Below are positions 10,367-41,873 of a stretch of 64,000 nucleotides of DNA, piece by piece (position 1 is the first letter of the stretch; the number at the start of each line of letters is the position of its first letter). This DNA comes from Candidatus Elulimicrobiales bacterium (GTDB lineage: Bacteria > Patescibacteriota > Minisyncoccia > Phycocordibacterales > UBA5272): the NCBI GenBank assembly GCA_034927475.1, contig JAYFPW010000002.1:45372-109371 (forward strand), given 5' to 3'. The notes under the pieces are model-generated. The model saw only the letters and a program-made list of their open reading frames with translations. It was not told the DNA's origin and searched no databases. A program made the position numbers and the translations under genes.

Positions 10367-10753
10367 TTACTCTTTGCCAACTTGAAGAATTACACTTTTT
10401 TCTTTATTGTATTTATCTATAGCGTGTATTACAACCAAAGTGTAAGGTTCTTTTGAGATTAATTCTTCTTCAAAATCTCCTTTTTCGTTTATACTTATTT
10501 CTCTGCCATTTAAATAAATATTTCTAGCGTTTTTTACATTACCATGTATAAAAAAAGTTTCTCCAGAAATAGTCTCATAAGGCAAGGGTGATAAGATTTC
10601 TATTTTTGGACCAGTAAAATAGTTAAAAATCTTAAAAGAAAAATAAACTAAAATAAAAGCTAATAATAGGAAAAATGCCCAAGTTTTTAATTTGTCCCTA
10701 AAAGGTCGATAATATTTATTTCTACTCTTCTTCATTTTCTTCTGTGTCACCAT
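10367..10753 (-). CDS. hypothetical small membrane-anchored protein
   Basis: Basic N-terminus followed by one TM helix (WAFFLLLAFILVYF). No recognisable family. Overlaps the ftsK 3' end by 32 nt. Confidence 0.35.
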   Translation of the reverse strand: MVTQKKMKKSRNKYYRPFRDKLKTWAFFLLLAFILVYFSFKIFNYFTGPKIEILSPLPYETISGETFFIHGNVKNARNIYLNGREISINEKGDFEEELISKEPYTLVVIHAIDKYNKEKSVILQVGKE

Positions 10754-13622: not shown

Positions 13623-14489
13623 ATGAATACCGTGCCCCCAAACTACAATTTATTAATTGCTAAAAAGACAGAAAAAATTGTCACAGCGATTTATCTCATT
13701 TCTCAATTTCTAAAGGACACAGAATCTCTTAAACATGAATTAAGAAAAGAATCTAATAATTTACTCAGAGCTTTAAGCTTGCTTGCTTATGGAGACCACA
13801 AAGATGTTTTTCCTATTTATAAAGGATCATTGGATTCAGTTTCACTTTTAATTTCCTATTTAACTATTGCAAAAGAAAGTAATTTAATTTCTCGTATGAA
13901 TGTAGAAATTGTCATCGAAGCTTTAAGGGTTTTAGAAAATCTTTTGGTTAAAAAACAGTTTAATTTAAGAAGGGAAAATCTTTTTATCAATGAAGAAAAT
14001 TTTTTAATATCATTACTCGATACAAAAGATGAGGTTTCTATTAATACAAATACTTCTTATGATGTGTTAACTGGAAGAAATATTGTTGAAGAAAATTTTT
14101 CTAATCAAACAAAAACTGAGAACAATAAAAATATTTCTATAAAGGACAAAATTTCTAAAGGACAAAATTTAAATATAAAGGACAAAACTATAGAGAAAGA
14201 AGCTGATAAAACAAAGACAGTTATAAAGGACACTTTTAAACCTTCTTCAATAAAACCAGAACCTAAAGCTAAAAAATCTGCTCAAAATAAAGAGAGAAAA
14301 AACAATAGAAGAGAGCAAATACTAGCTTTATTTAGCAAAGGAGTAGAAGTTTCTATAAAGGACATTTCTAAAAAAATCGTAGGCTGCTCTGTGAAAACTA
14401 TTCAAAGAGAATTAAATGATTTAGTCTCAGAAAATAAAATCGAAAGAATAGGGGACAAAAGATGGAGTAAATATACTCTCGTTAAGTAA
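13623..14489 (+). CDS. DNA-binding protein with a C-terminal winged-helix (DeoR/MarR-like) HTH and a K/D-rich repeat linker
   Basis: C-terminal ...EVSIKDISKKIVGCSVKTIQRELNDLVSENKIERIG has an HTH/wing pattern. The central low-complexity IKDK repeats are encoded by the same ATAAAGGACA word that is reiterated upstream. Confidence 0.5.
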   Translation: MNTVPPNYNLLIAKKTEKIVTAIYLISQFLKDTESLKHELRKESNNLLRALSLLAYGDHKDVFPIYKGSLDSVSLLISYLTIAKESNLISRMNVEIVIEALRVLENLLVKKQFNLRRENLFINEENFLISLLDTKDEVSINTNTSYDVLTGRNIVEENFSNQTKTENNKNISIKDKISKGQNLNIKDKTIEKEADKTKTVIKDTFKPSSIKPEPKAKKSAQNKERKNNRREQILALFSKGVEVSIKDISKKIVGCSVKTIQRELNDLVSENKIERIGDKRWSKYTLVK

Positions 14490-14899
14490 ATTAATTTCTT
14501 AACATTCTTAACTAAACCATTGATTTTTATAATTAATATTTTAATTCTGAAAAAAATATGCTATATTTGTAACTAGACGACCTGTCTCTGGTGAGGGCGT
14601 CCTCTGGTATTTGAGATACATTTATAAGTAATTATAGGTATCACAAAAGACTAGATCGATCGTTGGCAATAGAATATAGACGCAGATTAGAAAATTTATT
14701 AGTTAATTATTAGTTAATATTAACCCTAATAAGTGTTTAGATTCAGTCGCAATTTTTATTATCTTACGAATGTAAAAATTAAAACAGCGATGGGTCTCGT
14801 TAGTAGTTAATGAAATATTTGCTTGTCGAAGCGAATAAAAAATATTTTGTTGACTATGATCTCTATAAGATCAAAAGTTATAAATTTTTATAAAAAGTT

Positions 14900-17800
14900 A
14901 TGAATAAAATCAAGACAGCAGCTTTTGCTGTTATCGCAGGTGTACTTGCAGGAGCACTTTTTGCTTCAGCGCAAGTTACCACAACATCTTCATGCTACCA
15001 ATTCACAAGAAACTTGAAAGTTGGTAACACAGGAGCAGATGTAAAAGCGCTCCAACAAACTTTAAATGCACGTGGCTTCACAGTTGCAGCAGCAGGACAT
15101 GCTGGATCTGCAGGTATGGAAACTACATATTTCGGAAATGCAACAAAAAATGCCCTCATCAAATGGCAAGAGGCAAATGCATCAAAAGTTCTTGCTGCTT
15201 GGGGATTAACCTCAGGAACAGGATTCTTTGGTACAGCATCAAGAGCAGAAATGAATAATTGCGGTGGTTCAGTAGTAGTTCCTCCAACAACAGGAACAAC
15301 AACAGTATCAGGACCTCTAACAGTTTCATTAGCTCAAGTTCAACCAAACAATGTACTAGTGGCAGGACAAGCTCACGCTAAACTTGCTGATATTGTGTTC
15401 TCAGGAACAGGTATTGTTACTGGTGTTCAATTACAAAGAACAGGTGTTTCAAATAACAACGTATTAACAAATGTATATCTATACGAAGGTAATACAAAAA
15501 TTAGTGATGGAGCATCTGTAATGGCTGACGGATCAATTCGTTTCAATTTTGGAACAGGATTATTCTCAGTTACAGGATCAAAAACAATTTCAGTATTTGC
15601 TGATGTTGAGAAAAATAATACATCAGGACAGTCAGTTGGAGTTGCTCTAACAGGCTACACAATCGCAGGAAATGCGCCAGCAGTAGTTTCTGGAGTAAAT
15701 GGTCCTAATCTTCCAATTGGTTCAGCAACACTTGCTGATGTAATTGTTACAAGAACAACAAATCAAAACCAAGCTAATATCGGAGACCAAAATGTAAATA
15801 TCTGGTCAGCAGGAATAAATGTTTTACAACATGATGTTTACTTTGTTGGTGGATCATTTAGAATGATTGGTTCAGCTCCTTTTACAGCTCTTTCAAATGT
15901 AAAACTTTACATTGATGGAGTACAAGTCGGAAATGCAGCAGCAATCGATGCAGCAGGAAGACTTTCATTCTCAGGAGGAAATCAATTAGTGAGATCCGGT
16001 TACCACACTCTTAATGTTCGTGCTGACGTTGCGGATGGAGCTGGAAGAACACTTCAACTTTCTCTAGAGCAAGGATCAGACTTCTTATTCCAAGATGCTC
16101 AATTAGTAGGTGCGTATGTATTACCTGTTAATACATCAAACGTACCTTTCTACAACATGACTGGAGACCTTCTAACTATTGGAGCGTGTGCATCAGGTGT
16201 AAACTGTACAATTCTTACAGCAGATGCTGATTTCGCAGGAACTGCAGCAAGAGCGACTACAGGTGCATCAAATCAAACAATTGGTAAATTTAAGCTTACA
16301 GCTTCAGGTGAGCCAATCAGACTAATGTCAGCTGACATTGATGTTACATCAAGCGTAGTTAATACTGATGCTGTTACTAATGTATCAGTATATGTAAATG
16401 GAATGGCTGTATCTTCAGGAGCAACTATTGGATTCCCTGCAGCAAGTTCATCAGTTCACCTAAACAATTTAGGAGGAGTTGTTGTTAACCCAGGTCAATC
16501 AGTTGTCATTGAAGTTAAAGCTGATTTGAGAAATCCTAACGGAACAAACATTGCAGGTTCACAAAACTTGACTGTAAAATTAAACAATTTACAAGTACAA
16601 GGAACCCAATCAAGAAACATTAGTACAGCTCCAAATACCAACTCTTTACAAGCAGTAGTTGGAGGTACTTCAGCAGTATTTTCTAAGAGCTCTTCATTCT
16701 CAGGAGGAACAGCTACAGTAAATGCGCAAGAAGTAAAAATCGGATCATTTACAATGTCTAGCGGTTATGCAGAAGGTGTTAACTTAACTCAAATTGACGT
16801 AGTTATCACTCCTTCAGGAACTCCTTCATTTGATAGAAGTTCTATCTCATCACTTACTCTAAAGAGTAGTAATGGACAAAATTATCAAAGAACAGTAGGT
16901 TCCGGAACAACTGTTGCAACAACTTCATTCTCATTATTTGATTCAATTCCAGTGAATTCAGCTATGACATATGATGTGTTTGCAAACTTCAATAATGCTA
17001 CTGGATCAGTAGCAATCTCTGGAGTAGGACACTTCACAGGTATGACTTCTAATGTGGTAGCTACTCAAACAGTAGCAGCTGTAACAACAAACTTTGGAGC
17101 AGCATCATTAGGATCAATTACCTTGAATTCAAATTCAGACGGTTCACAATTTGTAACCGGTGGAACACAAACAAAATCTGTATTCTTAATCCCTGCAACA
17201 AATGGTAACAATGTTAACTTAAATACTGTTGAGCTTAAAGTAAGTAATGACGCAGCAGTAGCAGGAGTTAAAATTAACGGACAAGATGCTGTATCACAAG
17301 GAAATGGTAATTACCAAGTTGTGTTAAATAGTCCTATCGCTTTAACATCAGGATTTGGTAGCCAACTTCCTGTAGATGTAATCTTTAATGCACCTACAAA
17401 TTCAAATAGCTTAAGTAATACAACCACAAAAGTAGATATAACTTACTTAGGAACAAGCTTAGCTAATACCTCAGCTGGAACACAAGGTACATACACAGGA
17501 TCAGTTGCTGCATCAAATACATTTACTTCAGCAATTGCTATCCCAACATCAGTGAAAGCAACTAGCGGAAGTACAGTAAATAATGGTTCAGGAATCAAAC
17601 TTGGATCAATTACTGTAAACACAAATGGAGCAATCAGAATTGATGACCTTACATTTAATACAGCAGTAGCAAATGGTGGCGCTGTTTCAAACATCGTAAT
17701 TAAGAGAGGAAATACAACTGTTACTCACTCAGTAACTGGAAGTGTATACACTCTTACAGGAGGTGATATTGTAAGTGGAAATGTGACTTATGATATCTAC

Positions 17801-17923
17801 GGTGATATTGCTTCTATGGGAAGTTCAGGTTCAGCAACTGTAAGTCTCGGTGCTGCATCAGCCTTCAAGTGGAACGACTCAGTAAATACATTTACTGGAG
17901 CAGGAATCAAAGAGTACAACTAA
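14900..17923 (+). CDS. large secreted cell-surface protein: signal peptide, peptidoglycan-binding domain, and ~850 aa of Thr/Ser/Gly/Val/Asn-rich beta-repeat region
   Basis: Signal peptide MNKIKTAAFAVIAGVLAGALFASAQV. PG_binding_1-like LKVGNTGADVKALQQTLNARGF...FGNATKNALIKWQ. The rest is low-complexity T/S/G/N/V-rich with almost no Cys or charged residues. Confidence 0.7.
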   Translation: MNKIKTAAFAVIAGVLAGALFASAQVTTTSSCYQFTRNLKVGNTGADVKALQQTLNARGFTVAAAGHAGSAGMETTYFGNATKNALIKWQEANASKVLAAWGLTSGTGFFGTASRAEMNNCGGSVVVPPTTGTTTVSGPLTVSLAQVQPNNVLVAGQAHAKLADIVFSGTGIVTGVQLQRTGVSNNNVLTNVYLYEGNTKISDGASVMADGSIRFNFGTGLFSVTGSKTISVFADVEKNNTSGQSVGVALTGYTIAGNAPAVVSGVNGPNLPIGSATLADVIVTRTTNQNQANIGDQNVNIWSAGINVLQHDVYFVGGSFRMIGSAPFTALSNVKLYIDGVQVGNAAAIDAAGRLSFSGGNQLVRSGYHTLNVRADVADGAGRTLQLSLEQGSDFLFQDAQLVGAYVLPVNTSNVPFYNMTGDLLTIGACASGVNCTILTADADFAGTAARATTGASNQTIGKFKLTASGEPIRLMSADIDVTSSVVNTDAVTNVSVYVNGMAVSSGATIGFPAASSSVHLNNLGGVVVNPGQSVVIEVKADLRNPNGTNIAGSQNLTVKLNNLQVQGTQSRNISTAPNTNSLQAVVGGTSAVFSKSSSFSGGTATVNAQEVKIGSFTMSSGYAEGVNLTQIDVVITPSGTPSFDRSSISSLTLKSSNGQNYQRTVGSGTTVATTSFSLFDSIPVNSAMTYDVFANFNNATGSVAISGVGHFTGMTSNVVATQTVAAVTTNFGAASLGSITLNSNSDGSQFVTGGTQTKSVFLIPATNGNNVNLNTVELKVSNDAAVAGVKINGQDAVSQGNGNYQVVLNSPIALTSGFGSQLPVDVIFNAPTNSNSLSNTTTKVDITYLGTSLANTSAGTQGTYTGSVAASNTFTSAIAIPTSVKATSGSTVNNGSGIKLGSITVNTNGAIRIDDLTFNTAVANGGAVSNIVIKRGNTTVTHSVTGSVYTLTGGDIVSGNVTYDIYGDIASMGSSGSATVSLGAASAFKWNDSVNTFTGAGIKEYN

Positions 17924-17987: not shown

Positions 17988-18017
17988 AAAACACCCCTTC
18001 AAAGGGGTGTTTTTGTT
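17988..18017 (+). terminator. intrinsic terminator after the surface-protein gene
   Basis: acacccctt-caa-aaggggtgt followed by tttttgtttg. Confidence 0.7.
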
Positions 18018-18065
18018 TGCTTGTTTTGAAATGAAAGTTGTTTGCAAAGAAAATTTAAAAAATGC

Positions 18066-18094
18066 TTGACTTTTATTTCTACTTAGTATATACT
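18066..18094 (+). promoter_or_regulatory. sigma-70-type promoter TTGACT-17-TATACT
   Basis: TTGACT 18066-18071, 17-nt spacer, TATACT 18089-18094. Confidence 0.55.
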
Positions 18095-18100
18095 AGTTTA

Positions 18101-18158
18101 CATGTTTGGGTTTACTCAAACATACAGAAGCACTGGCCCTCGGGTCGGTGTTTTTGTT
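18101..18158 (+). ncRNA. candidate small RNA 1 (~55 nt) bounded by promoter and terminator
   Basis: Predicted TSS ~18101. Internal hairpin atgtttg/caaacat. Terminator stem cactggccc/gggtcggtg (2 G-U pairs) followed by tttttgtttg. No ORF. Confidence 0.4.
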
Positions 18159-18208
18159 TGTATAGATTTTTACACAAATTTTAATGTTTAGATATTGTTA
18201 ATAAGTGT

Positions 18209-18237
18209 TTGACTTTGGAGAGAGGGTGATATATAAT
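18209..18237 (+). promoter_or_regulatory. perfect consensus promoter TTGACT-17-TATAAT
   Basis: TTGACT 18209-18214, 17-nt spacer, TATAAT 18232-18237. Confidence 0.6.
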
Positions 18238-18243
18238 TTGATT

Positions 18244-18321
18244 ACTGTGGGGCGTCAGCCCTATTCGGCTAAATCATAAGCTGAAGGCAGAAACAAAAAA
18301 TACCCGCAAGGGTGTTTTTTG
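18244..18321 (+). ncRNA. candidate small RNA 2 (~76 nt) bounded by promoter and bidirectional terminator
   Basis: Predicted TSS ~18244. Hairpins gggc-gtca-gccc and agcc-ctattc-ggct. Terminator aaaaaataccc-gcaa-gggtgtttttt (GNRA loop). No ORF. The terminator also serves the convergent gene 18330-18809. Confidence 0.4.
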
Positions 18322-18329
18322 TTTCTTTG

Positions 18330-18809
18330 TTAATCTTCTTCCGGGTTACCTTTCATTGTTGTAAAAAACTTAACATCTCTATATTTGTTAGTTGTCCAAG
18401 CAGGGACTACACTCCAAAAATGAATATTCCCATTATCTCCTATTTTTCTCAATATTACTTTTATTTTTCTGCCATCAATTATAGCTATAATTCCCCAATA
18501 TTTTATTGAACGAGTGATAAAAGTTTTCTTTTTGTATTTTTTAGCAGATATGGTAGAAATGGTTTCTTCATATTCTTGATAGGTTGTAGATTTTTTAACC
18601 AATTTTATAGCTAAAGGAAGAAGTTTAAATCTAAGAATTTGAGAAGATCTTTCTCTTTCACTTCTTCCTTTTTTAAAAATTATATGATTAAATCCTTCAG
18701 AATTAAAACTTATCTCTGTTTCTAGAGCTGGAGAGAAGATTTTTCCCGTGGAACTATAAAAGTCCTGGGAGTCTTTTTTTAATTTTTCATAATTAGATAG
18801 ATCATTCAT
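18330..18809 (-). CDS. hypothetical protein (159 aa), basic, no confidently recognised family
   Basis: Intact ORF with its own terminator. C-terminal segment KVILRKIGDNGNIHFWSVVPAWTTNKYRD. Could not be assigned from sequence alone. Confidence 0.4.
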   Translation of the reverse strand: MNDLSNYEKLKKDSQDFYSSTGKIFSPALETEISFNSEGFNHIIFKKGRSERERSSQILRFKLLPLAIKLVKKSTTYQEYEETISTISAKKYKKKTFITRSIKYWGIIAIIDGRKIKVILRKIGDNGNIHFWSVVPAWTTNKYRDVKFFTTMKGNPEED

Positions 18810-21589: not shown

Positions 21590-24500
21590 TTTCCTGATAG
21601 GAAATATAAGAGCATAAGGTGGATGCCTTGGTTCAAGAAAGCGATGAAAGACGTGATCAGGCTGCGATAAGTTTCGGGGAGGTGCCTAATAACCTTCGAT
21701 CCGGAAATTTCTGAATGAGGAAACTCTCCTGAAGTAATGTTCAGGAATCTAGGGAGCATATCTTTAGAGGCAAACCTGGGGAAGTAAAACATTCTAGTAC
21801 CCAGAGGAAAAGAAAACAAAGTTTATTCCGCAAGTAGCGGCGAGCGAAAACGGAGGAGCCCAAATTCTTTGTAGTAATACAAAGTTGGTTGTAGGCTTGA
21901 GATGTAGAATTATCTAGAGGAGTTACAAAAGTTGATTATAGGTTAAGCTATTGGAAAGTAGCACCACAGAGGGTGATAGTCCCGTAATCGAAATCTTCAA
22001 CTCTCTTTTATCTCTTGTCCTGAGTAGTTCGAGACACGAATAGCTCGGATGAATCTGCCGGAACTAACCGGTAAGGCTAAATATTTCTTGAGACCGATAG
22101 TGAACTAGTACCGCGAGGGAAAGGTGAAAAGAACCCTGGAAAGGGAGTGAAATAGAACTGAAACCTTATGTTTACAAAGAGTAGGAGAGGACTTGTTCCT
22201 CGACTGCGTGCCTATTGAAGAATGAGCCAACGAGTCTTATTATCCAGCCGGCTAAGCAGCATAAAGTTGTGGAGCCACAAGCGAAAGCGAGTGTTAATAG
22301 CGCGAAATAAAGGTTGAGTAATAAGGACCCGAAGCCGGATGAGCTACCCATGAGCAGGGTGAAGCTTGTCGAAAGACAAGTGGAGGCCCGAACCAATAAG
22401 TTGTGCGACTCTTTTGGATGACTTGTGGGTTGGAGTGAAAAGCTAATCGAATTCGGTAATAGCTGGTTCTCGTCGAAATATTTTTTGGAATAGCGTCAGG
22501 TGGTCCCTTTGGGGGTAGAGCACTGGAAGGTCTTGACTAGTGGAAACACGGCAATACCTATCAAACTCCGAATACCAAAGATTATCAGCCTGGCAGTCAG
22601 ACTCCGGGGGCGAAGCTCCGGTGGTCTAAAGGGAAACAGCCCAGATCTAAAATTAAGGTCCCTAAGTATATGCTAAGTGTAAGCAAGGATGTGAAGTTTC
22701 ATTGACAATGAGGATGTTGGCTTAGAAGCAGCCATCATTGAAAGAAAGCGTAACAGCTCACCCATCGAGAGACTCTGCGCCGCAGATGATCGGGACTCAA
22801 GCATATCACCGAAGTTTAGGGATTGTATGTTCGCATACAATCGGTAGACGAGTGTTCCACTCTGCGTTGAAGCGAAAGGGGTGACCCATCGTGGAGCGTG
22901 TGGAAGTAAGAATGTTGGCACAAGTAACCGCAATGGAGGTGAGATCCCTCCACGCCGAAAGAATAAGGTTTCCTTCGCAATGATTGTCAGCGAAGGGTTA
23001 GTCGAGCCTAAGGGGATGGCAATGCGCCGGACCCGATGGACATAAGGTTAATATTCCTTAACTTGGTATAAATGTGATGGAATGACGCATTGTTGTACTC
23101 TATGCCTCTTATCAGATTGAGGTCTTTGTAATGATTAGCGAGAGCATGTAAATCAGTTCTCGAATACTGAGAGTTATGAAGCGAAGCTTGTAGCAATACT
23201 GGTGAAGATAGAGGAGCACGGTGCCGAGAAAAGTTTCTACATCTACTGAATAGTAGATATTGTCTTGTGAATAATGTTTCTAGTCATCTATGAAATATTA
23301 TTCACAAATGTGACAATACTTAAGTTTATATCAAACCGTACCGCAAACCGACACAGGTATTCAGGTCGAGTAGACCCAGGCGAACGAGTGATTTCTCCCT
23401 AAGGAACTAGGCAAAAAAGCAGCCGTAAGTTAGCAATAAGGCTTGCCTGTAGCAATACAGGCCGCAGTGAAAGTTTCTCTGGCAACTGTTTATCTAAAAC
23501 ACAGCTCCATGCGAACTCGTAAGAGTATGTATATGGGGTGACACCTGACCAATGCGGGAAGGTCAAATATCGGTGGTCACATGGTGATCTTGAAATTTAT
23601 TATTCGTAATTTATTTTGAGTTCACCATGTGGCTGACTGATATAAGCCCCCGTCAATGTCGGCGATAACTATAATCGTCCTAAGGTAGCGAAGTTCCTTG
23701 TCTGGTAAGTTCAGACGTGCACGAATGGTGTAATGACTGGGGAACTGTCTCAGGGAGTAGCTCGGTGAAAATACAGTGGCGGTGAAGATGCCGCCTACCT
23801 GCAGATAGACGAAAAGACCCCGTGAGCTTTACTCTAGCTTGGTATTGTGTTTATTAATTTGTTGCGTAGAATAGTGGTGAGACTTTGAAGTATAGATTTT
23901 GGTTTATATGGAGTCGACAGTGAAATAGCCATCTGCATCTTGGTAAACACTAACCTAAACGGAAAAAACGTTTAGAGACAGTATCTGGTGGGGAGTTTTA
24001 CTGGGGTGGTACCCTCCTAAAAGGTAACGGAGGGGTTTATTAAGGTCAGTTAGGCGCGAATGGAAACCGTGCCGATAGTGTAATGGCATAAACTGGCTTG
24101 ACTGTAAGACGGGCATGTCGAGCAGATACGAAAGTAGAACATAGTGAACCGACAATTCGCATTAGATGCGGTTGAAGATTAACGGATAGAAGCTACCACG
24201 GGGATAACAGGCTAGTTCCACCTAAGCGTCCATAGCGACGGTGGAGTTCGGCACCTCGATGTCGGCTCATCTTATCCTGGGGGTGAAGAAGCTCCCAAGG
24301 GTATGGCTGTTCGCCATTTAAAAAGATACGCGAGCTGGGTTCAAACCGTCGTGAGACAGGTTGGTCTCCTATCTACTGCAGGCGCTTGAATATTGAGAAG
24401 ATTTGTCTCTAGTACGAGAGGACCGAGATGAACTGACCTCTGGTGTGTGGGCTCTGACGCTAGTTGGATCGCCCAGTAGCCAAGTCGGGAATGGATAAGT

Positions 24501-24645
24501 TCTGAAAGCATCTAAGAACGAAGCCAACTTCAAGATAAGTATTCTATGAGGGTCGTAAGAGATGATTACGTTGATAGGATCTAAGTGTAAGTACAGTAAT
24601 GTACTCAGCTGAGGATTACTAATAACCCGATTCTTATCAGGAAAT
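21590..24645 (+). rRNA. rrl: 23S ribosomal RNA (approximate ends, ~3.05 kb including AT-rich expansion segments)
   Basis: 5' aagagcataaGGTGGATGCCTTGG...GATGAAaGACGTG. Internal conserved blocks include GTACCGCAAACCGACACAGGT, GGATAACAGGCT and ACGAGAGGACCG. 3' GAAAGCATCTAAG... Terminal helix cctgatagg/cttatcagg. Confidence 0.9.
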
Positions 24646-24909
24646 ATATTTATCATGTTTTTACAGACTTAACTCTTGTATCCTAAAAATTATTTTTGAT
24701 TGATTTTTAATTAATTTTCTTTAATTTTTAGGATTCAGGAGTTAAAAAGCCACGTCGGTGTGCTTAATATCTAGTTAACAATTCTTAAGATTAATAGAAA
24801 AATTCTATCAAAATTTTTCTTTAATTTTAACTTGCGTTGGCGATTTAACGACATTAAGCATCCGACGATCTAATACAGGATTCTAAACTCAAATCAAAAG
24901 ATTTGAGTA

Positions 24910-25028
24910 TTCTGTTCTCCCGATTCAGATGAAGGGTAACACACCATCCCATTTCGAACTGGATCGTGAAGACTTCACTCAGCGATGGTAGCGTCCGCGC
25001 AAGAGTAGCTTTTCGGGAGAACAGAGTA
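24910..25028 (+). rRNA. rrf: 5S ribosomal RNA
   Basis: Terminal helix tctgttctcccg/cgggagaacaga, with an internal ...CCCATTTCGAACTGG...GTAGCGTCCGCGCAAGAGTAG pattern ~265 nt after the 23S. Confidence 0.8.
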
Positions 25029-25097: not shown

Positions 25098-25123
25098 ATT
25101 TTGTGAAATCAAATTTTTATGAT
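25095..25123 (+). promoter_or_regulatory. promoter TTGATT-17-TATGAT for rplJ-rplL
   Basis: Hexamers with a 17-nt spacer, overlapping the T-run of the 5S terminator. Confidence 0.5.
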
Positions 25124-25223
25124 ATATTTATATTCGTAAACCAAAGAAGTGAGTGAGCAAATATAGCTCTTAAAATACAAACTCACGGAGGTCGAACTTA
25201 GGCATTTTGCCAGTGTTTACCTT

Positions 25224-25260
25224 AAATCTCTCTAATCTCTTTGGTTGAGAGATTTTTGTT
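25224..25260 (+). promoter_or_regulatory. leader hairpin plus U-tract (putative attenuator) in the rplJ leader
   Basis: aaatctctc-N14-gagagattt followed by ttgttt, located ~100 nt before the rplJ ATG. Confidence 0.4.
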
Positions 25261-25277
25261 TATAAAAATAAAAATAT

Positions 25278-33903: not shown

Positions 33904-34615
33904 ATTTTTATTTAAAATATTACAAACTCCTTTTATCATAAAGGACTATTTAAGCTATCTTAAAAAGGATAAGAATCAGAGATTTAATTTAAAAATAAAA
34001 GATTTTTATCCTCAAATAAAAGATAAGACCATAAAAACTGGTTTCGATAGACATTACGTCTACCATACTGCATGGGCAGCTAGAAAAATAAAAGAAATTA
34101 ATCCTATTAAGCATATAGATATTTCTTCTAGTTTATATTTTTCAGGAATACTCTCTTCTTTTATTGATATTGATTTTTACGATTATCGTCCAGCAGATCT
34201 ACATTTGTCCGGATTAAAAAGTTTAGAAGGTAATCTTTATAATCTTCCTTTTGAGTCAAATTCTCTTAAATCAATTTCTTGTATGCATACAGTTGAACAT
34301 ATAGGACTTGGTAGGTATGGGGACACCATAGATCCAGAAGGTGATTTAAGGGCTATTTCAGAATTAAAGAGAGTTGTGGAGCCAAAGGGAAATCTTTTAT
34401 TTGTGGTCCCTATAGGTAGAGCTAAAATTGAATTTAATGCACACCGGGTATACTCTTATGAGCAAATAATCTCATATTTTGATAAATTTACACTAAAAGA
34501 ATTCTCTTTAATACCAGAATCAGCAGATAAAGGAGGTTTGATTATAAATGCAGATCCTAAATTAGTCGAAGCTGAAAAATATGCCTGCGGGTGTTTTTGG
34601 TTTATAAAAAATTAG
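33887..34615 (+). CDS. hypothetical protein, possible methyltransferase-like (DUF268-type) enzyme of the glycan cluster
   Basis: 242 aa. Conserved-looking YHTAWAARKI...MHTVEHIG blocks. Assignment is tentative. Confidence 0.35.
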   Translation: MKKIIKFLFKILQTPFIIKDYLSYLKKDKNQRFNLKIKDFYPQIKDKTIKTGFDRHYVYHTAWAARKIKEINPIKHIDISSSLYFSGILSSFIDIDFYDYRPADLHLSGLKSLEGNLYNLPFESNSLKSISCMHTVEHIGLGRYGDTIDPEGDLRAISELKRVVEPKGNLLFVVPIGRAKIEFNAHRVYSYEQIISYFDKFTLKEFSLIPESADKGGLIINADPKLVEAEKYACGCFWFIKN

Positions 34616-34620
34616 ACAAT

Positions 34621-35517
34621 ATGATAAAAGTAAAAATTCAAGCTGGATTAGGTAACCAAATGTTCCAATATGCTTTAGCTCGATATTTACAAGAAAAAAC
34701 AAGACAAGAAATAATTCTAGACCTCTCTTACTATTCTCTAGGTGGAGTAAAAAGGGGTGATACTCCTCGTGGATATGAGTTGGACAAATTTAATATAAAC
34801 GAAAGCTTTAAAAAAGATTTTTCTCCTACACCTTTCAAGGCTACATTTTTTGGAAAAATTTTGAGAAGATTTAAAAATGAATCAGCTTTTGTTTTTTATA
34901 AAAAGTTTTTGAATCCAAAAGACGGCAATTATTTAATAGGTTTTTGGCAGTCAGAAAAATATTTTAAAGACATCGAATATATTATAAGGAAAGAATTTAC
35001 TCTAAAAAATAGAATCGAAATCCGAGAAGATTCTGATTTAGCCAAACAGTTTTTGAATCAGATATTATTTTCCAAAAACTCTATTTCTGTAAATGTGCGA
35101 AGAGGGGATTATGCTAACAATCCTAAAATACGAAATCATCATGGGCTTTTGTCCATAGAGTATTTTATAGAAGCTGTTAAATATGTTGTAAAAGAAAAGA
35201 AACTTTTGAAAGAAGGTGTTAAGATTTTTATCTTTTCAGATGATGTTGAGTGGTGTAGAGAAAACTTAGATTCTTTAAAAGATTTTGGAGAATTGGTATT
35301 TGTCTCAAAAGATATAATAGCCACAGATTCTTTGTACTTAATAAGTAAATGTAAATATAATGTAATTGCTAATTCTTCCTTTTCTTGGTGGGCGGCTTGG
35401 TTGAATAATAATCCAAGCAAAATTGTAATTGCTCCTAAAAAATGGATGAGAACTAAGGTTGATACAAAAGACGTTTGTCCTCACGATTGGATTAGATTAG
35501 AAAATAGATTTTATTAA
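34621..35517 (+). CDS. alpha-1,2-fucosyltransferase (glycosyltransferase family 11)
   Basis: GT11 motifs: N-terminal GGLGNQMFQYA, HVRRGDY-type VNVRRGDY, and IFSDDVEWC. Start at MIKVKIQ (ATG 34621). Confidence 0.85.
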   Translation: MIKVKIQAGLGNQMFQYALARYLQEKTRQEIILDLSYYSLGGVKRGDTPRGYELDKFNINESFKKDFSPTPFKATFFGKILRRFKNESAFVFYKKFLNPKDGNYLIGFWQSEKYFKDIEYIIRKEFTLKNRIEIREDSDLAKQFLNQILFSKNSISVNVRRGDYANNPKIRNHHGLLSIEYFIEAVKYVVKEKKLLKEGVKIFIFSDDVEWCRENLDSLKDFGELVFVSKDIIATDSLYLISKCKYNVIANSSFSWWAAWLNNNPSKIVIAPKKWMRTKVDTKDVCPHDWIRLENRFY

Positions 35518-39912: not shown

Positions 39913-40539
39913 ATGTCATTTTTAGAAAATTTAAATTGGAGATACGCTACAAAAAAATTTGATACCACTAAAAAAATAAGTGAAGAAAATTTACAAAAAA
40001 TAAGAGAAGCTATTAGACTAGCTCCTGCCAGTATGGGGTTGCAACTTTATAAAATTCTTGAAGTTACAAATGGGGAAGTTAGAGAAAAAATGAGAGCTGC
40101 TTCAAATAATCAACCTCAAGTCACCGATGCCGATAGAGTTTTTGTATTTTTGGCAAGTATTGATGGAGAAAATAGAGTAGAAGAGATGTTTACTGAAATG
40201 AGTGGTGGAAATGCTGAAGTTAGAGAAAACAATCTAAAAGGCTATGAGGATATGGTTCGGGGATTTGCACTTTCTAAGAGCCACGACAATCTTTTAGCTT
40301 GGTCCCAGAAAAATCTTGGTATAGCTCTCGGATTTGCTTTAGCTGCTTGTGCAGAATTAAAAATAGATGCTTGTCCAATGGATGGATTTGACCCTCTACA
40401 AATTAAAGAAATCTTAGGAGCTGGTGAAAACTTTTTCCCAGTTGCTTATTTAGCAGTTGGCTATAGAGATGAGAGTGATGAGACTAGTTCTCGTCCAAAA
40501 TGGAGGCTTCCTCTTGATAAAACAATTCAAAAAATCTAA
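39913..40539 (+). CDS. NAD(P)H nitroreductase family protein (NfsB/FRase I-like), paralog 1
   Basis: N-terminal FLENLNWRYATKKFD, RxA PASMGLQ region and C-terminal ...GY. Length 208 aa. Confidence 0.8.
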   Translation: MSFLENLNWRYATKKFDTTKKISEENLQKIREAIRLAPASMGLQLYKILEVTNGEVREKMRAASNNQPQVTDADRVFVFLASIDGENRVEEMFTEMSGGNAEVRENNLKGYEDMVRGFALSKSHDNLLAWSQKNLGIALGFALAACAELKIDACPMDGFDPLQIKEILGAGENFFPVAYLAVGYRDESDETSSRPKWRLPLDKTIQKI

Positions 40540-41240: not shown

Positions 41241-41873
41241 ATGTCATTTTTAGAAAATTTAAATTGGAGATACGCTACTAAAAGATTTGATACAACTAAA
41301 AAAGTTAAAGAAGAAGATGTGAAGAAGATTCGTGAAGCTATTCGTATGACTCCTACTAGTCTCGGAGTACAAATGTTCCATGTCGTAGAAGTTGTGAGTC
41401 AAGATTTAAAAGATAAATTGAGAGCCATTTCTTTCGATCAAGAGCAAATGTCTACCGCGGATAGGATTTTTGTCTTTTGTGCTAGAAAAGATTTAGCGGA
41501 TAGAACAGAAGAAATGTTTATGGATATGACAAATAATGACGAAGAGTTTAGAAAAAACGATAAAGACATTTCTCAGTATGAAAAATCAGTTAAATTCTTT
41601 GCGGGGCAATTGGGTGCTGACAGAATTCCAGAATGGTCTGCCAGGGAAGCCCATATTGTCTTGGGATTTGCTCTCGCAGCCTGTGCAGAATTAAAAATAG
41701 ACTCTTGCCCAGTTGGTGGATTTGATCCAGTCAAAGCTAAAGAGATTTTAAATATGGATTTAGACTTTATGCCAGTTGTGTGTTTGCCAATTGGTTATAG
41801 AGATGAGACAGATGAACATCTCAAGTTTAAAAAATGGAGATTTCCGGAAGACAAAATCTTTGAAAAAATGTAA
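41241..41873 (+). CDS. NAD(P)H nitroreductase family protein, paralog 2
   Basis: The first 16 residues (MSFLENLNWRYATK(K/R)FD) are almost identical to paralog 1, with the same fold signature throughout. Confidence 0.8.
   Translation: MSFLENLNWRYATKRFDTTKKVKEEDVKKIREAIRMTPTSLGVQMFHVVEVVSQDLKDKLRAISFDQEQMSTADRIFVFCARKDLADRTEEMFMDMTNNDEEFRKNDKDISQYEKSVKFFAGQLGADRIPEWSAREAHIVLGFALAACAELKIDSCPVGGFDPVKAKEILNMDLDFMPVVCLPIGYRDETDEHLKFKKWRFPEDKIFEKM

Follow-up and report, generated by a model that had tools for sequence, protein, structure and literature searches.

The locus examined here raises the question of what a secreted protein of 1007 amino acids does for a Patescibacterium when charged residues make up only 9% of its body, the minimum among the 56 open reading frames of the window (the whole 64-kb stretch of DNA that was analysed). 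CPR bacteria, or Patescibacteria, may form a large share of bacterial diversity, and a Patescibacterial S-layer has been observed by cryo-EM. An experimental identification of a Patescibacterial S-layer protein was not found in the literature searched. The gene had first been singled out from the letters alone as a low-charge secreted reading frame, an observation that the analysis confirms. Its product is a 100% match to MPL62324.1, MEA4910577.1 and UniRef100_A0A644T680, and the mature protein has a computed mass of ~99.6 kDa and a computed pI of 6.2. Most likely, it is secreted, attached to the cell's own wall and built from six beta-sandwich domains, and we consider it probable that it is a peptidoglycan-anchored S-layer protein of a Paceibacteria-type Patescibacterium. 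It is a further member of a very large CPR family that has been proposed to build crystalline coats, a proposal made by computation only. The features of the locus are collected in Table 1.

Table 1. Coordinates of the surface-protein gene, its domains and its flanking elements in the window
Feature	Position	Strand	Basis or remark
Upstream neighbour, 288 aa	13623..14489	+	conserved; sub-threshold winged-HTH at aa ~229-276
Extended -10 promoter-like element TGCTATATT	14559..14567	+	conserved in alignment; TGnTATATT in relatives
Conserved 5' leader, ~325 nt, probably structured	14575..14899	+	alignment, folding statistics
CDS, surface protein	14900..17923	+	1007 aa + stop
Sec-type signal peptide, aa 1-25	14900..14974	+	sequence features; predicted cleavage between ASA and QV
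PG_binding_1 domain, aa ~33-122	14996..15265	+	Pfam, PDB profile search, structure match
Flexible T/P/G-rich linker, aa 123-137	15266..15310	+	pLDDT <50
Beta-sandwich D1, aa 138-286	15311..15757	+	model, conservation, domain hhalign; best conserved domain
Beta-sandwich D2, aa 287-436	15758..16207	+	model, domain hhalign
Beta-sandwich D3, aa 437-590	16208..16669	+	model, domain hhalign
Beta-sandwich D4, aa 591-736	16670..17107	+	model, domain hhalign
Beta-sandwich D5, aa 737-876	17108..17527	+	model; most divergent repeat
Beta-sandwich D6, aa 877-1007	17528..17920	+	model, conservation, hhalign; least conserved overall
Intrinsic terminator	17988..18020	+	11-bp stem, 5 G-C pairs, then T-run; strong

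Secretion, as proposed from the outset, can be read from the features of the signal peptide, which is the sole hydrophobic segment in the protein and has a pLDDT of ~32 in the AlphaFold model; A24 and Q25 are conserved across the family alignment. The peptidoglycan-binding N-terminus claimed in the sequence-only reading is also found, as PG_binding_1 (PF01471) matches aa 44-93 with 29.5 bits against a gathering cut-off of 23. The N-domain shows the three-helix PG-binding fold, and the family profile matches the PG-binding domains of solved hydrolases in the PDB with E values of 1e-5 to 3e-4, this domain being the sole region of the protein that is matched in PDB sequence searches. Within it, a pair of cysteines (Cys32 and Cys121) is conserved in family alignments, and a disulfide between the two is possible. 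A Pfam search found no SLH domain (PF00395) in the protein, and the linker that follows the PG-binding domain is the point where the alignment with SLH-bearing relatives starts.

For the long region behind the linker, tandem repeats of either an Ig-like or a beta-helical type had been suggested. The Ig-like half of this suggestion stands: the all-beta blocks of the AlphaFold model, the repeat offsets and the domain-wise hhalign comparisons agree on six tandem Ig-like domains. A right-handed parallel beta-helix of the pectate-lyase-like type is rejected because the model shows separate sandwiches, whose matches are of the cohesin-like and Ig-like kinds. The accompanying doubt, that the region might be disordered and of low complexity, with no repeat or fold signal and no counterpart in relatives, falls away: the pLDDT is 88 (~90), the signal is clear, and there are thousands of relatives. 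The inter-domain geometry of the model is uncertain because its pTM is 0.49. By hhalign, the profile similarity of D5 to the other domains is weak, and in D6 two residues, W991 and D993, are invariant despite the lowest conservation of all domains. Searching the PDB and BFVD with the full-length model using Foldseek gave generic tandem-Ig matches only (TM 0.1-0.2). Adhesins, pilins and complement proteins provide the top structural matches, all of them generic sandwiches of the Ig-like or cohesin-like type and none from a solved S-layer protein; an NCBIfam search with the protein gave no match. Two further candidates were rejected. An alpha-2-macroglobulin or complement MG protein would require a CxEQ thioester motif, which is absent, and its matches are only to generic MG/Ig sandwiches with a TM of ~0.1; an LPXTG-anchored Gram-positive adhesin or pilin would need a C-terminal sorting signal with a hydrophobic tail, but the LPxTG motif is missing and the signal peptide is the only hydrophobic segment.

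The family to which the protein belongs is broad. The family profile recovers 2,466 representative clusters (50% identity) at E<=1e-30, and the best 150 matches all have E <1e-175, the full-length ones among them being mostly 1000-1300 aa long and aligned end to end. Because members are matched end to end at this length, the six-domain plan is fixed across classes, in contrast to the expandable stalks of adhesins. Nearly all named members are Patescibacteria, including Paceibacterota, Nomurabacteria, Buchananbacteria, Falkowbacteria and Kuenenbacteria. The same profile also recovers six-domain proteins, 1131-1274 aa long, and three-domain forms, 638-693 aa long; the latter, together with the proteins of 1131, 1174 and 1185 aa, are matched at E<1e-175. 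The anchor can be exchanged within the family. In one relative (P0177), three SLH repeats (E 5e-34) replace the PG-binding domain, and from the linker onward its body is 35% identical to the 1007-aa protein (E 2e-55); in another (P0153), a single weaker SLH match (E 3e-5) takes the same place.

A protein of the same architecture has been predicted in a 2024 bioRxiv preprint (10.1101/2024.05.28.596244). It presents a candidate S-layer protein of Patescibacteria whose six Ig-like domains would serve assembly, with a left-handed spiral monomer and predicted p6 lattices of the "hexagonal spiral pyramid" kind; the predicted lattice constant is about 18 nm for six-domain forms and about 13 nm for three-domain forms. 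Homologues are reported to be numerous across Patescibacterial classes, and a three-domain short form of ~640-730 aa is included. The examples given there are A0A1G2EN61 (1131 aa), A0A0G1WWP5 (1173), GMX59286.1 (1185), A0A1F5NRV7 (1264) and A0A1F4NSF7 (1274) for the six-domain form, and GMX57981.1 (692), A0A1G2QP48 (643) and UMX47672.1 (727) for the three-domain form. The 1007-aa protein is assigned to this family on the basis of its architecture, length range, taxonomy and context, and the lengths of the six- and three-domain proteins recovered by the profile support this indirectly; the support for the six-domain family itself is computational only.

Read as an S-layer protein, the precursor would be exported by the Sec system and cut at about residue 25, and its PG_binding_1 domain would hold the cell's own murein non-covalently. 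Beyond the flexible linker of 15 residues, the six domains indicated by the model and the repeat analysis may associate by self-assembly with those of adjacent copies and so form a hexagonal coat, by analogy with what the preprint predicts for the same architecture. The anchor-proximal end is the conserved one, and the distal domains would be exposed and fast-evolving. Conservation is 0.66 in D1 and has dropped to 0.44 by D6, and at one related locus (L002) the surface protein is 53% identical, compared with 82-92% for its neighbours. The gene would stand alone as a unit, with its own extended -10 promoter, the conserved and probably structured leader of 325 nt and a strong terminator, and it is probably very highly expressed. 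As a proxy for expression, its codon usage leans towards that of ribosomal proteins by +0.070, against 0.025-0.051 for the ribosomal genes of the window and a mean of -0.043 for other genes. In PMC10936435, the five secreted genes with the highest expression in three Paceibacteria include ones for proteins with peptidoglycan-binding domains; homologues rank among the most highly expressed secreted genes in two Paceibacteria. One distant family member shares an ECF-sigma/DUF5667 neighbourhood with the locus from that study. The link to O-glycosylation by a glycan cluster with a fucosyltransferase, suggested in the sequence-only reading, is not supported: the cluster is present in the window, but no oligosaccharyltransferase was seen in its 64 kb and nothing connects the cluster with the surface protein.

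Several points weaken the S-layer reading, namely that solved S-layer proteins are missing from the top structural matches, that PG_binding_1 is not a classic S-layer anchor, that a very low charge combined with a near-neutral pI is unusual for S-layer proteins, and that rapid divergence is just as typical of adhesins. It also counts against it that PMC10936435 interprets the homologues as proteins for host attachment. A wall-anchored, non-crystalline surface protein serving mainly in host-cell adhesion, as a fibrillar Ig-like stalk, is a rival that we regard as unlikely. An LPXTG motif, a thioester motif and a distinct tip or lectin domain are all absent; across classes the domain number stays at six and orthology follows domain position, whereas the number of repeats in stalk adhesins varies; the housekeeping synteny is strictly conserved in close relatives; and some relatives carry SLH anchors. 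The methanogens that serve as hosts in PMC10936435 are without murein, and the PG-binding domain must therefore hold the bacterium's own wall. The initial proposal had left the choice between sheath, S-layer and adhesin open; of the three, the S-layer gains, and sheath and adhesin are less supported because of the fixed domain number, the positional orthology, the exchange for SLH anchors and the lack of an LPXTG motif or tip domain. The adhesin and S-layer readings are not exclusive, as an S-layer can also mediate contact.

The surroundings of the gene bear on a third explanation, in which the protein would bind peptidoglycan below a separate outer layer and serve the wall zone there as a structural spacer or scaffold, neither forming a lattice nor mediating adhesion. 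The PG-binding anchor would fit this, as would the cell-envelope and division genes nearby (FtsK upstream, an M23 peptidase and an SPFH protein downstream). However, a buried protein is unlikely to diverge several-fold faster than its neighbours or to show conservation falling toward its distal end, and the lattice predictions of the preprint (10.1101/2024.05.28.596244) point the other way for the same architecture, which makes a scaffold improbable. Automatic names of homologues ("peptidoglycan hydrolase-like protein", "trimeric autotransporter adhesin") and the K21449 assignment of a relative in a table of PMC10936435 suggest an enzyme that cleaves the cell wall or an autotransporter adhesin of the trimeric type. 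Either is very improbable, since Pfam, NCBIfam and PDB searches show no catalytic domain, Pfam and NCBIfam show no YadA-type C-terminal anchor, there is no coiled coil, the model is all-beta without long helices, and the T/S/G/N/A-rich composition offers the simplest explanation for the K21449 match.

A "repeat array" had been noted to the left of the putative S-layer gene as a separate feature; it consists of 2.5 copies of TTATTAGTTAA (14696-14722) and turns out to be part of the gene's own conserved 5' leader. Strong conservation starts at 14575, 7-8 nt past the -10-like element. Of 20 loci, 17 have the leader 5' of the gene, and its core is 85-96% identical, compared with 91-96% for 23S rRNA and 78-83% for the recA coding sequence; the surface proteins have diverged to ~35% identity across species that share it. 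Its MFE has a z-score of -3.8, and its fold has 56 pairs (97% paired, 10 with compensatory changes), a result that was reached by 0 of 500 shuffles. Upstream of the distant members L011, L019 and L020 the leader is undetectable, so it is lineage-specific and not family-wide. No Rfam family matches it at gathering score, and no terminator was found between the leader and the ATG. A relaxed Rfam search gave a tmRNA fragment (E 0.047, 10 bits where 47 are needed) and otherwise noise only; the tmRNA is rejected because ARAGORN finds none and there are no tRNA-like ends. A short open reading frame in the leader (MKYLLVEAN) is rejected as a leader peptide because it is not conserved in relatives. 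Shine-Dalgarno sites are otherwise absent from the genome, and several genes have a -10-like box just 5' of the start codon. That the surface-protein gene is controlled through this 325-nt leader, as an undescribed structured RNA, is a serious possibility that we put forward tentatively. If true, it would represent a leader class of a new kind, one that regulates in cis or stabilises the mRNA and that specifically serves the major envelope protein in a CPR lineage.

A related-locus search with a 20-sequence family alignment gave 12 loci. The 288-aa neighbour lies directly 5' of the surface-protein gene in 17 of the 18 loci L001-L018, these 17 being all that include upstream sequence. Its matches to HTH_DeoR, HTH_36 and HTH_11 are weak (E 1e-3 to 1e-2, below the cut-offs), and on this basis it may be a regulator. 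The leader always adjoins the gene for this small winged-HTH-like protein. At the other end of the gene, the terminator of its own that had been claimed is present, and the terminator region is conserved in L002.

The window thus gives a clean and complete example of the leading candidate S-layer family. Absent from the literature searched are the interchangeable anchor module (PG_binding_1 or SLH), a gene that keeps its position within one lineage while diverging several times as fast as the genes around it, the drop in conservation from anchor to tip, and the extreme composition. The findings argue against the annotations "host-attachment enzyme" and "trimeric autotransporter" on homologues, and the conserved leader offers RNA biology a starting point of its own in CPR organisms.

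Among known systems, the six-domain protein of the preprint is the closest: signal peptide, wall anchor, six tandem Ig-like domains, phylum, a huge multi-class family and a three-domain short form are the same, and the 1007-aa protein differs in lying at the short end of the length range. Six Ig-like domains in a row are also found in csg of Haloferax volcanii. This archaeal protein is highly acidic, glycosylated and held by a C-terminal lipid anchor. According to the preprint (10.1101/2024.05.28.596244), the Patescibacterial protein bears a "striking resemblance" to csg in its basic architecture; PDB sequence and profile searches detect no sequence similarity to csg, which is also absent from the top structural matches, and the resemblance is an analogy of design and not an established homology. 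The SLH-anchored S-layer proteins, such as Sap and EA1 of Bacillus anthracis and SbsB and SbsC of Geobacillus, are comparable in that some family members carry a triple SLH module, whereas the 1007-aa protein is anchored by PG_binding_1 and its assembly domains have no sequence similarity to theirs. SLH anchors bind a pyruvylated secondary wall polymer; with its PG_binding_1 anchor, the 1007-aa protein would bind murein instead. The Ig-like fibrillar adhesins and pilins of Gram-positive bacteria (PrgB, antigen I/II, BcpA, LrpA) are also listed among the closest known systems. In the wall hydrolases that carry PG_binding_1 (SleB, the Streptomyces Zn DD-peptidase, gp144 of phage phiKZ and related endolysins), the domain accompanies a catalytic domain, in whose place the 1007-aa protein has ~870 residues of beta-sandwiches.

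The open reading frame proposed at 14900-17923 on the forward strand is found exactly there, with an ATG start and 1007 codons. Its N-terminus, MNKIKTAAFAVIAGVLAGALFASA|QV, is built in three parts like a Sec signal peptide, is the sole strongly hydrophobic segment of the surface protein, and carries A-S-A before the likely cleavage site; judging from this and from the family conservation of A24 and Q25, the peptide would be cleaved from the precursor. PG_binding_1 at residues 44-93, above the gathering score, is the only Pfam domain. An NCBIfam search of the protein gives no match, and the sole matches in sequence searches of the PDB are to PG-binding domains, those of endolysins, DD-peptidases and SleB-type enzymes. 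The remaining 870 residues, the body, consist of 64.5% S/T/G/A/N/V and 9.3% D/E/K/R. Across the window's 55 other ORFs, charged residues average 27.9% (minimum 12.5%), and the surface protein is the least charged of all, lower even than polytopic membrane proteins; an earlier description of the body as almost devoid of charge was slightly too strong.

An alignment of 69 full-length homologues was compared with itself by hhalign and then cut into six pieces, D1 to D6, numbered from the anchor outward. The self-comparison has off-diagonal matches at offsets of ~142 (probability 99.8%), 300 (99.2%), 452 (93%) and 733 residues (43%), so that the suspected internal repeats are indeed present. Most pairs among D1, D2, D3, D4 and D6 are mutually homologous at 80-98% probability (D2-D6 61%), and D5 is a weak repeat, with 51% to D3. 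The AlphaFold2 model from the same alignment has a mean pLDDT of 88.3, with beta strand throughout beyond residue 138 and disorder limited to the signal peptide (residues 1-31) and linker (123-137); relative domain placement is uncertain because pTM is 0.49. Foldseek against the PDB and viral models finds tandem Ig/MG proteins at TM 0.1-0.2. Repeat offsets, model and Foldseek matches together argue for a body of six predicted beta-sandwich domains, in a family without a solved relative. The sequence-only reading had suggested tandem Ig-like or beta-helical repeats: the first stands, as Ig/MG-type sandwiches, and the beta-helix is ruled out, as is a disordered body.

A first homologue search yielded 195 proteins; of the 120 best ones listed, almost all are 980-1130 aa long, most span the query end to end, and identities go down to ~31%. 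By source name the homologues are mostly Paceibacterota, Parcubacteria and Nomurabacteria. An identical protein (MPL62324.1, MEA4910577.1, UniRef100_A0A644T680) comes from the metagenome of a bioreactor and from a MAG that bears the label Candidatus Elulimicrobiales, Patescibacteria group. Searching 1.84 billion cluster representatives with a profile gives 24,991 matches at E<=1e-3, 13,804 at 1e-10 and 2,466 at 1e-30, the weaker tiers taking in unrelated proteins that have only the PG-binding domain in common. E-values of the top 150 all lie below 1e-175; full-length proteins among them are mostly 1000-1300 aa and cover profile positions ~1-1010, and proteins of 638-693 aa match only positions ~4-635, which is the anchor plus D1-D3. 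A second search, seeded with a 1131-aa member, adds Buchananbacteria, Falkowbacteria and Kuenenbacteria. Copies of the surface protein carry other labels: MEA4968290.1 (partial, from the same 90% cluster, P0001) is deposited under Bacteroidaceae, and P0112 under Burkholderiales; both labels are probably MAG binning contamination.

Two homologues begin differently. P0177 has three SLH repeats at its N-terminus (E 5e-34) and P0153 a single, weaker SLH match (E 3e-5); others bear PG_binding_1 there. From the linker (query residue 128) onward, P0177 aligns with the surface protein at 35% identity (E 2e-55), and the N-terminal module is thus interchangeable. SLH is the classic S-layer anchor, and since it occurs here on the same body, it is the strongest internal evidence on that body's function. 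The surface protein is probably a peptidoglycan-anchored S-layer protein, which would be bound to the cell's own murein, form a lattice and be highly abundant.

The same neighbourhood recurs in twelve species-representative genomes (see the table). At the related locus L002 the surface protein has 53% identity, against 92% for RecA, 87% for S1, 86% for both M23 and SPFH and 82% for FtsK; it evolves much faster than the neighbouring genes' products. Column conservation is 0.61 in the PG-binding domain and 0.66, 0.53, 0.49, 0.48, 0.45 and 0.44 from D1 to D6, and W991 and D993, close to the C-terminus, are invariant despite the low value of D6. The pattern fits an anchor-proximal part with a fixed partner and a distal part that would be exposed.

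Features at and around the surface-protein gene (window coordinates)
Feature	Position	Strand	Remarks
S1, RecA, 128-aa protein, FtsK	left of 288-aa ORF, in order	-	ribosomal protein S1 first; synteny, twelve genomes
288-aa ORF, surface-protein gene, M23 peptidase, SPFH protein, 23S rRNA	in order	+	synteny, twelve genomes
288-aa ORF	13623-14489	+	directly upstream of leader and gene in 17/18 related loci (L001-L018)
Extended -10 element TGnTATATT, here TGCTATATT	14559-14567	+	conserved; promoter-like by sequence
Leader, ~325 nt	14575-14899	+	conserved, predicted structure
Promoter-plus-terminator unit	18030-18170	+	TTGACT-17-TATACT at 18066-18094, then hairpin and T-run
Second promoter/terminator unit	18209-18326		within 18170-18809
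159-aa ORF	18330-18809	-	weak LPD3 match, E 8e-4, below cut-off
Wzx-type glycan biosynthesis cluster	29977-38774		genes listed in the text

The 288-aa ORF is upstream wherever upstream sequence is present. Pfam assigns it no family above cut-off and gives weak DeoR/HTH_36/HTH_11 matches at residues ~229-276; it could possibly regulate the surface-protein gene. In distant lineages an ECF sigma factor and a DUF5667 protein adjoin the family gene instead (as at L020 5961-11396), which hints at a different, sigma-factor-based control. The gene of one homologue, P0223, follows such a pair, and the three-domain PMX_810_sub_00350 is flanked by another (PMC10936435, Table S2, rows PMX_810_sub_00350-00352). 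Elsewhere in the neighbourhood, the 128-aa ORF (10367-10753, minus strand) overlaps the ftsK start by 32 nt, is kept in all syntenic loci and has a Glucodextran_B match just under threshold (26.1 bits vs 27). The 23S and 5S rRNA genes (21595-25022, +) directly follow the SPFH gene and are themselves followed by an L10 leader (25123-25267) and rplJ-rplL; since the 64-kb window has no 16S rRNA gene, the rRNA operon is split.

The newest element at the locus is the conserved leader RNA. The upstream spacer of 410 nt is unexpectedly well conserved, and the 186-nt core of the leader has 85-96% identity across 17 loci, comparable to 23S rRNA (91-96%). Identity is lower in the coding sequence of recA (78-83%) and in that of the surface protein, which has 65-75% and is alignable only in part. 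The window has one copy of the leader. In 17 of 20 loci a leader separates the 288-aa ORF from the gene, and at the three most distant loci it is undetectable. Its folding is more stable than that of shuffled sequence (z = -3.8). Its consensus structure has 56 pairs, 97% paired, 10 of them with compensatory changes, which 0/500 shuffles reach, in a structure derived from the same alignment that scored its covariation. Rfam gives no match for it and ARAGORN finds no tmRNA. The repeat array seen left of the gene exists, as TTATTAGTTAA in 2.5 copies at 14696-14722, and is part of this leader rather than separate. The gene's own terminator, also seen beforehand, is at 17988-18013, followed by a T-run.

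Codon usage was scored as log-likelihood ratio per codon against eleven ribosomal and chaperone genes of the window. The surface-protein gene scores +0.070, above every reference gene (0.025-0.051; other genes mean -0.043, sd 0.032), as a proxy for expression only. Just 1 of 56 genes has its start within 22 nt of a Shine-Dalgarno-like motif, and several have a TATAAT-like box 8-15 nt 5' of the ATG (e.g. starts 1132(-), 18920, 54327, 58982, 60896), which suggests leaderless or very short-leader mRNAs. Because of both features, a long leader is exceptional in this genome. Lactobacillus and Thermus S-layer genes are known to have long 5' leaders with a stabilising role, to which this one would be a parallel only.

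Just 3' of the terminator, the unit at 18030-18170 resembles a conserved gene for a small RNA: its identity is 97-99% in L002 and L015, with a tandem duplication in L015, and 83% in L003. The 159-aa ORF and most of the second unit are missing from L002 and L003, two close relatives in which the M23 peptidase gene begins ~300 nt after the surface-protein gene, and 18170-18809 looks like an insertion in this genome. The glycan cluster, suggested beforehand as a possible source of glycosylation of the surface protein, encodes a Polysacc_synt flippase, an NAD-dependent epimerase/dehydratase, two methyltransferase-like proteins, two GT2, a GT11 (34591-35517), a Bac_transf initiating sugar transferase and GT4/GT1. 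Within the window no oligosaccharyltransferase or Wzy-type ligase is recognised, and no link between cluster and surface protein was found. Two paralogous nitroreductase-like genes (39913-40539 and 41241-41873, +) lie further on, with an unannotated 214-aa ORF between them.

What the sequence-only reading observed is confirmed, and its interpretation is supported in part. The S-layer reading draws on architecture, repeats, family size and spread, anchor swap, synteny, divergence gradient and expression-unit anatomy. Its main rival, a non-crystalline adhesin, seems rather unlikely; a wall-zone scaffold is less likely again. PMC10936435 describes highly expressed proteins with peptidoglycan-binding domains and similar predicted structures, and interprets them as host-attachment 'enzymes'; a 692-aa gene there is labelled K21449, trimeric autotransporter adhesin, which is why several homologues carry the autotransporter misnomer. 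Hydrolase and autotransporter readings are rejected by direct tests and deserve hardly any weight.

The literature searched contained no paper in which a CPR S-layer protein is identified by experiment, and the surface protein joins a kind already predicted and lacking experimental verification. According to the supplement to a preprint (bioRxiv 10.1101/2024.05.28.596244), homologues of a putative S-layer protein are numerous in Patescibacterial classes and, by metatranscriptomics, rank in the top five for expression among secreted genes in 2/3 Paceibacteria; in the third species the version has three domains, and its predicted 13.5-nm cell matches the 13-nm lattice observed by cryo-EM. Because that family and the present one agree in architecture, size range, taxonomy, the existence of a short form with three domains and one neighbourhood in common, they are, by this comparison of descriptions, very likely the same.
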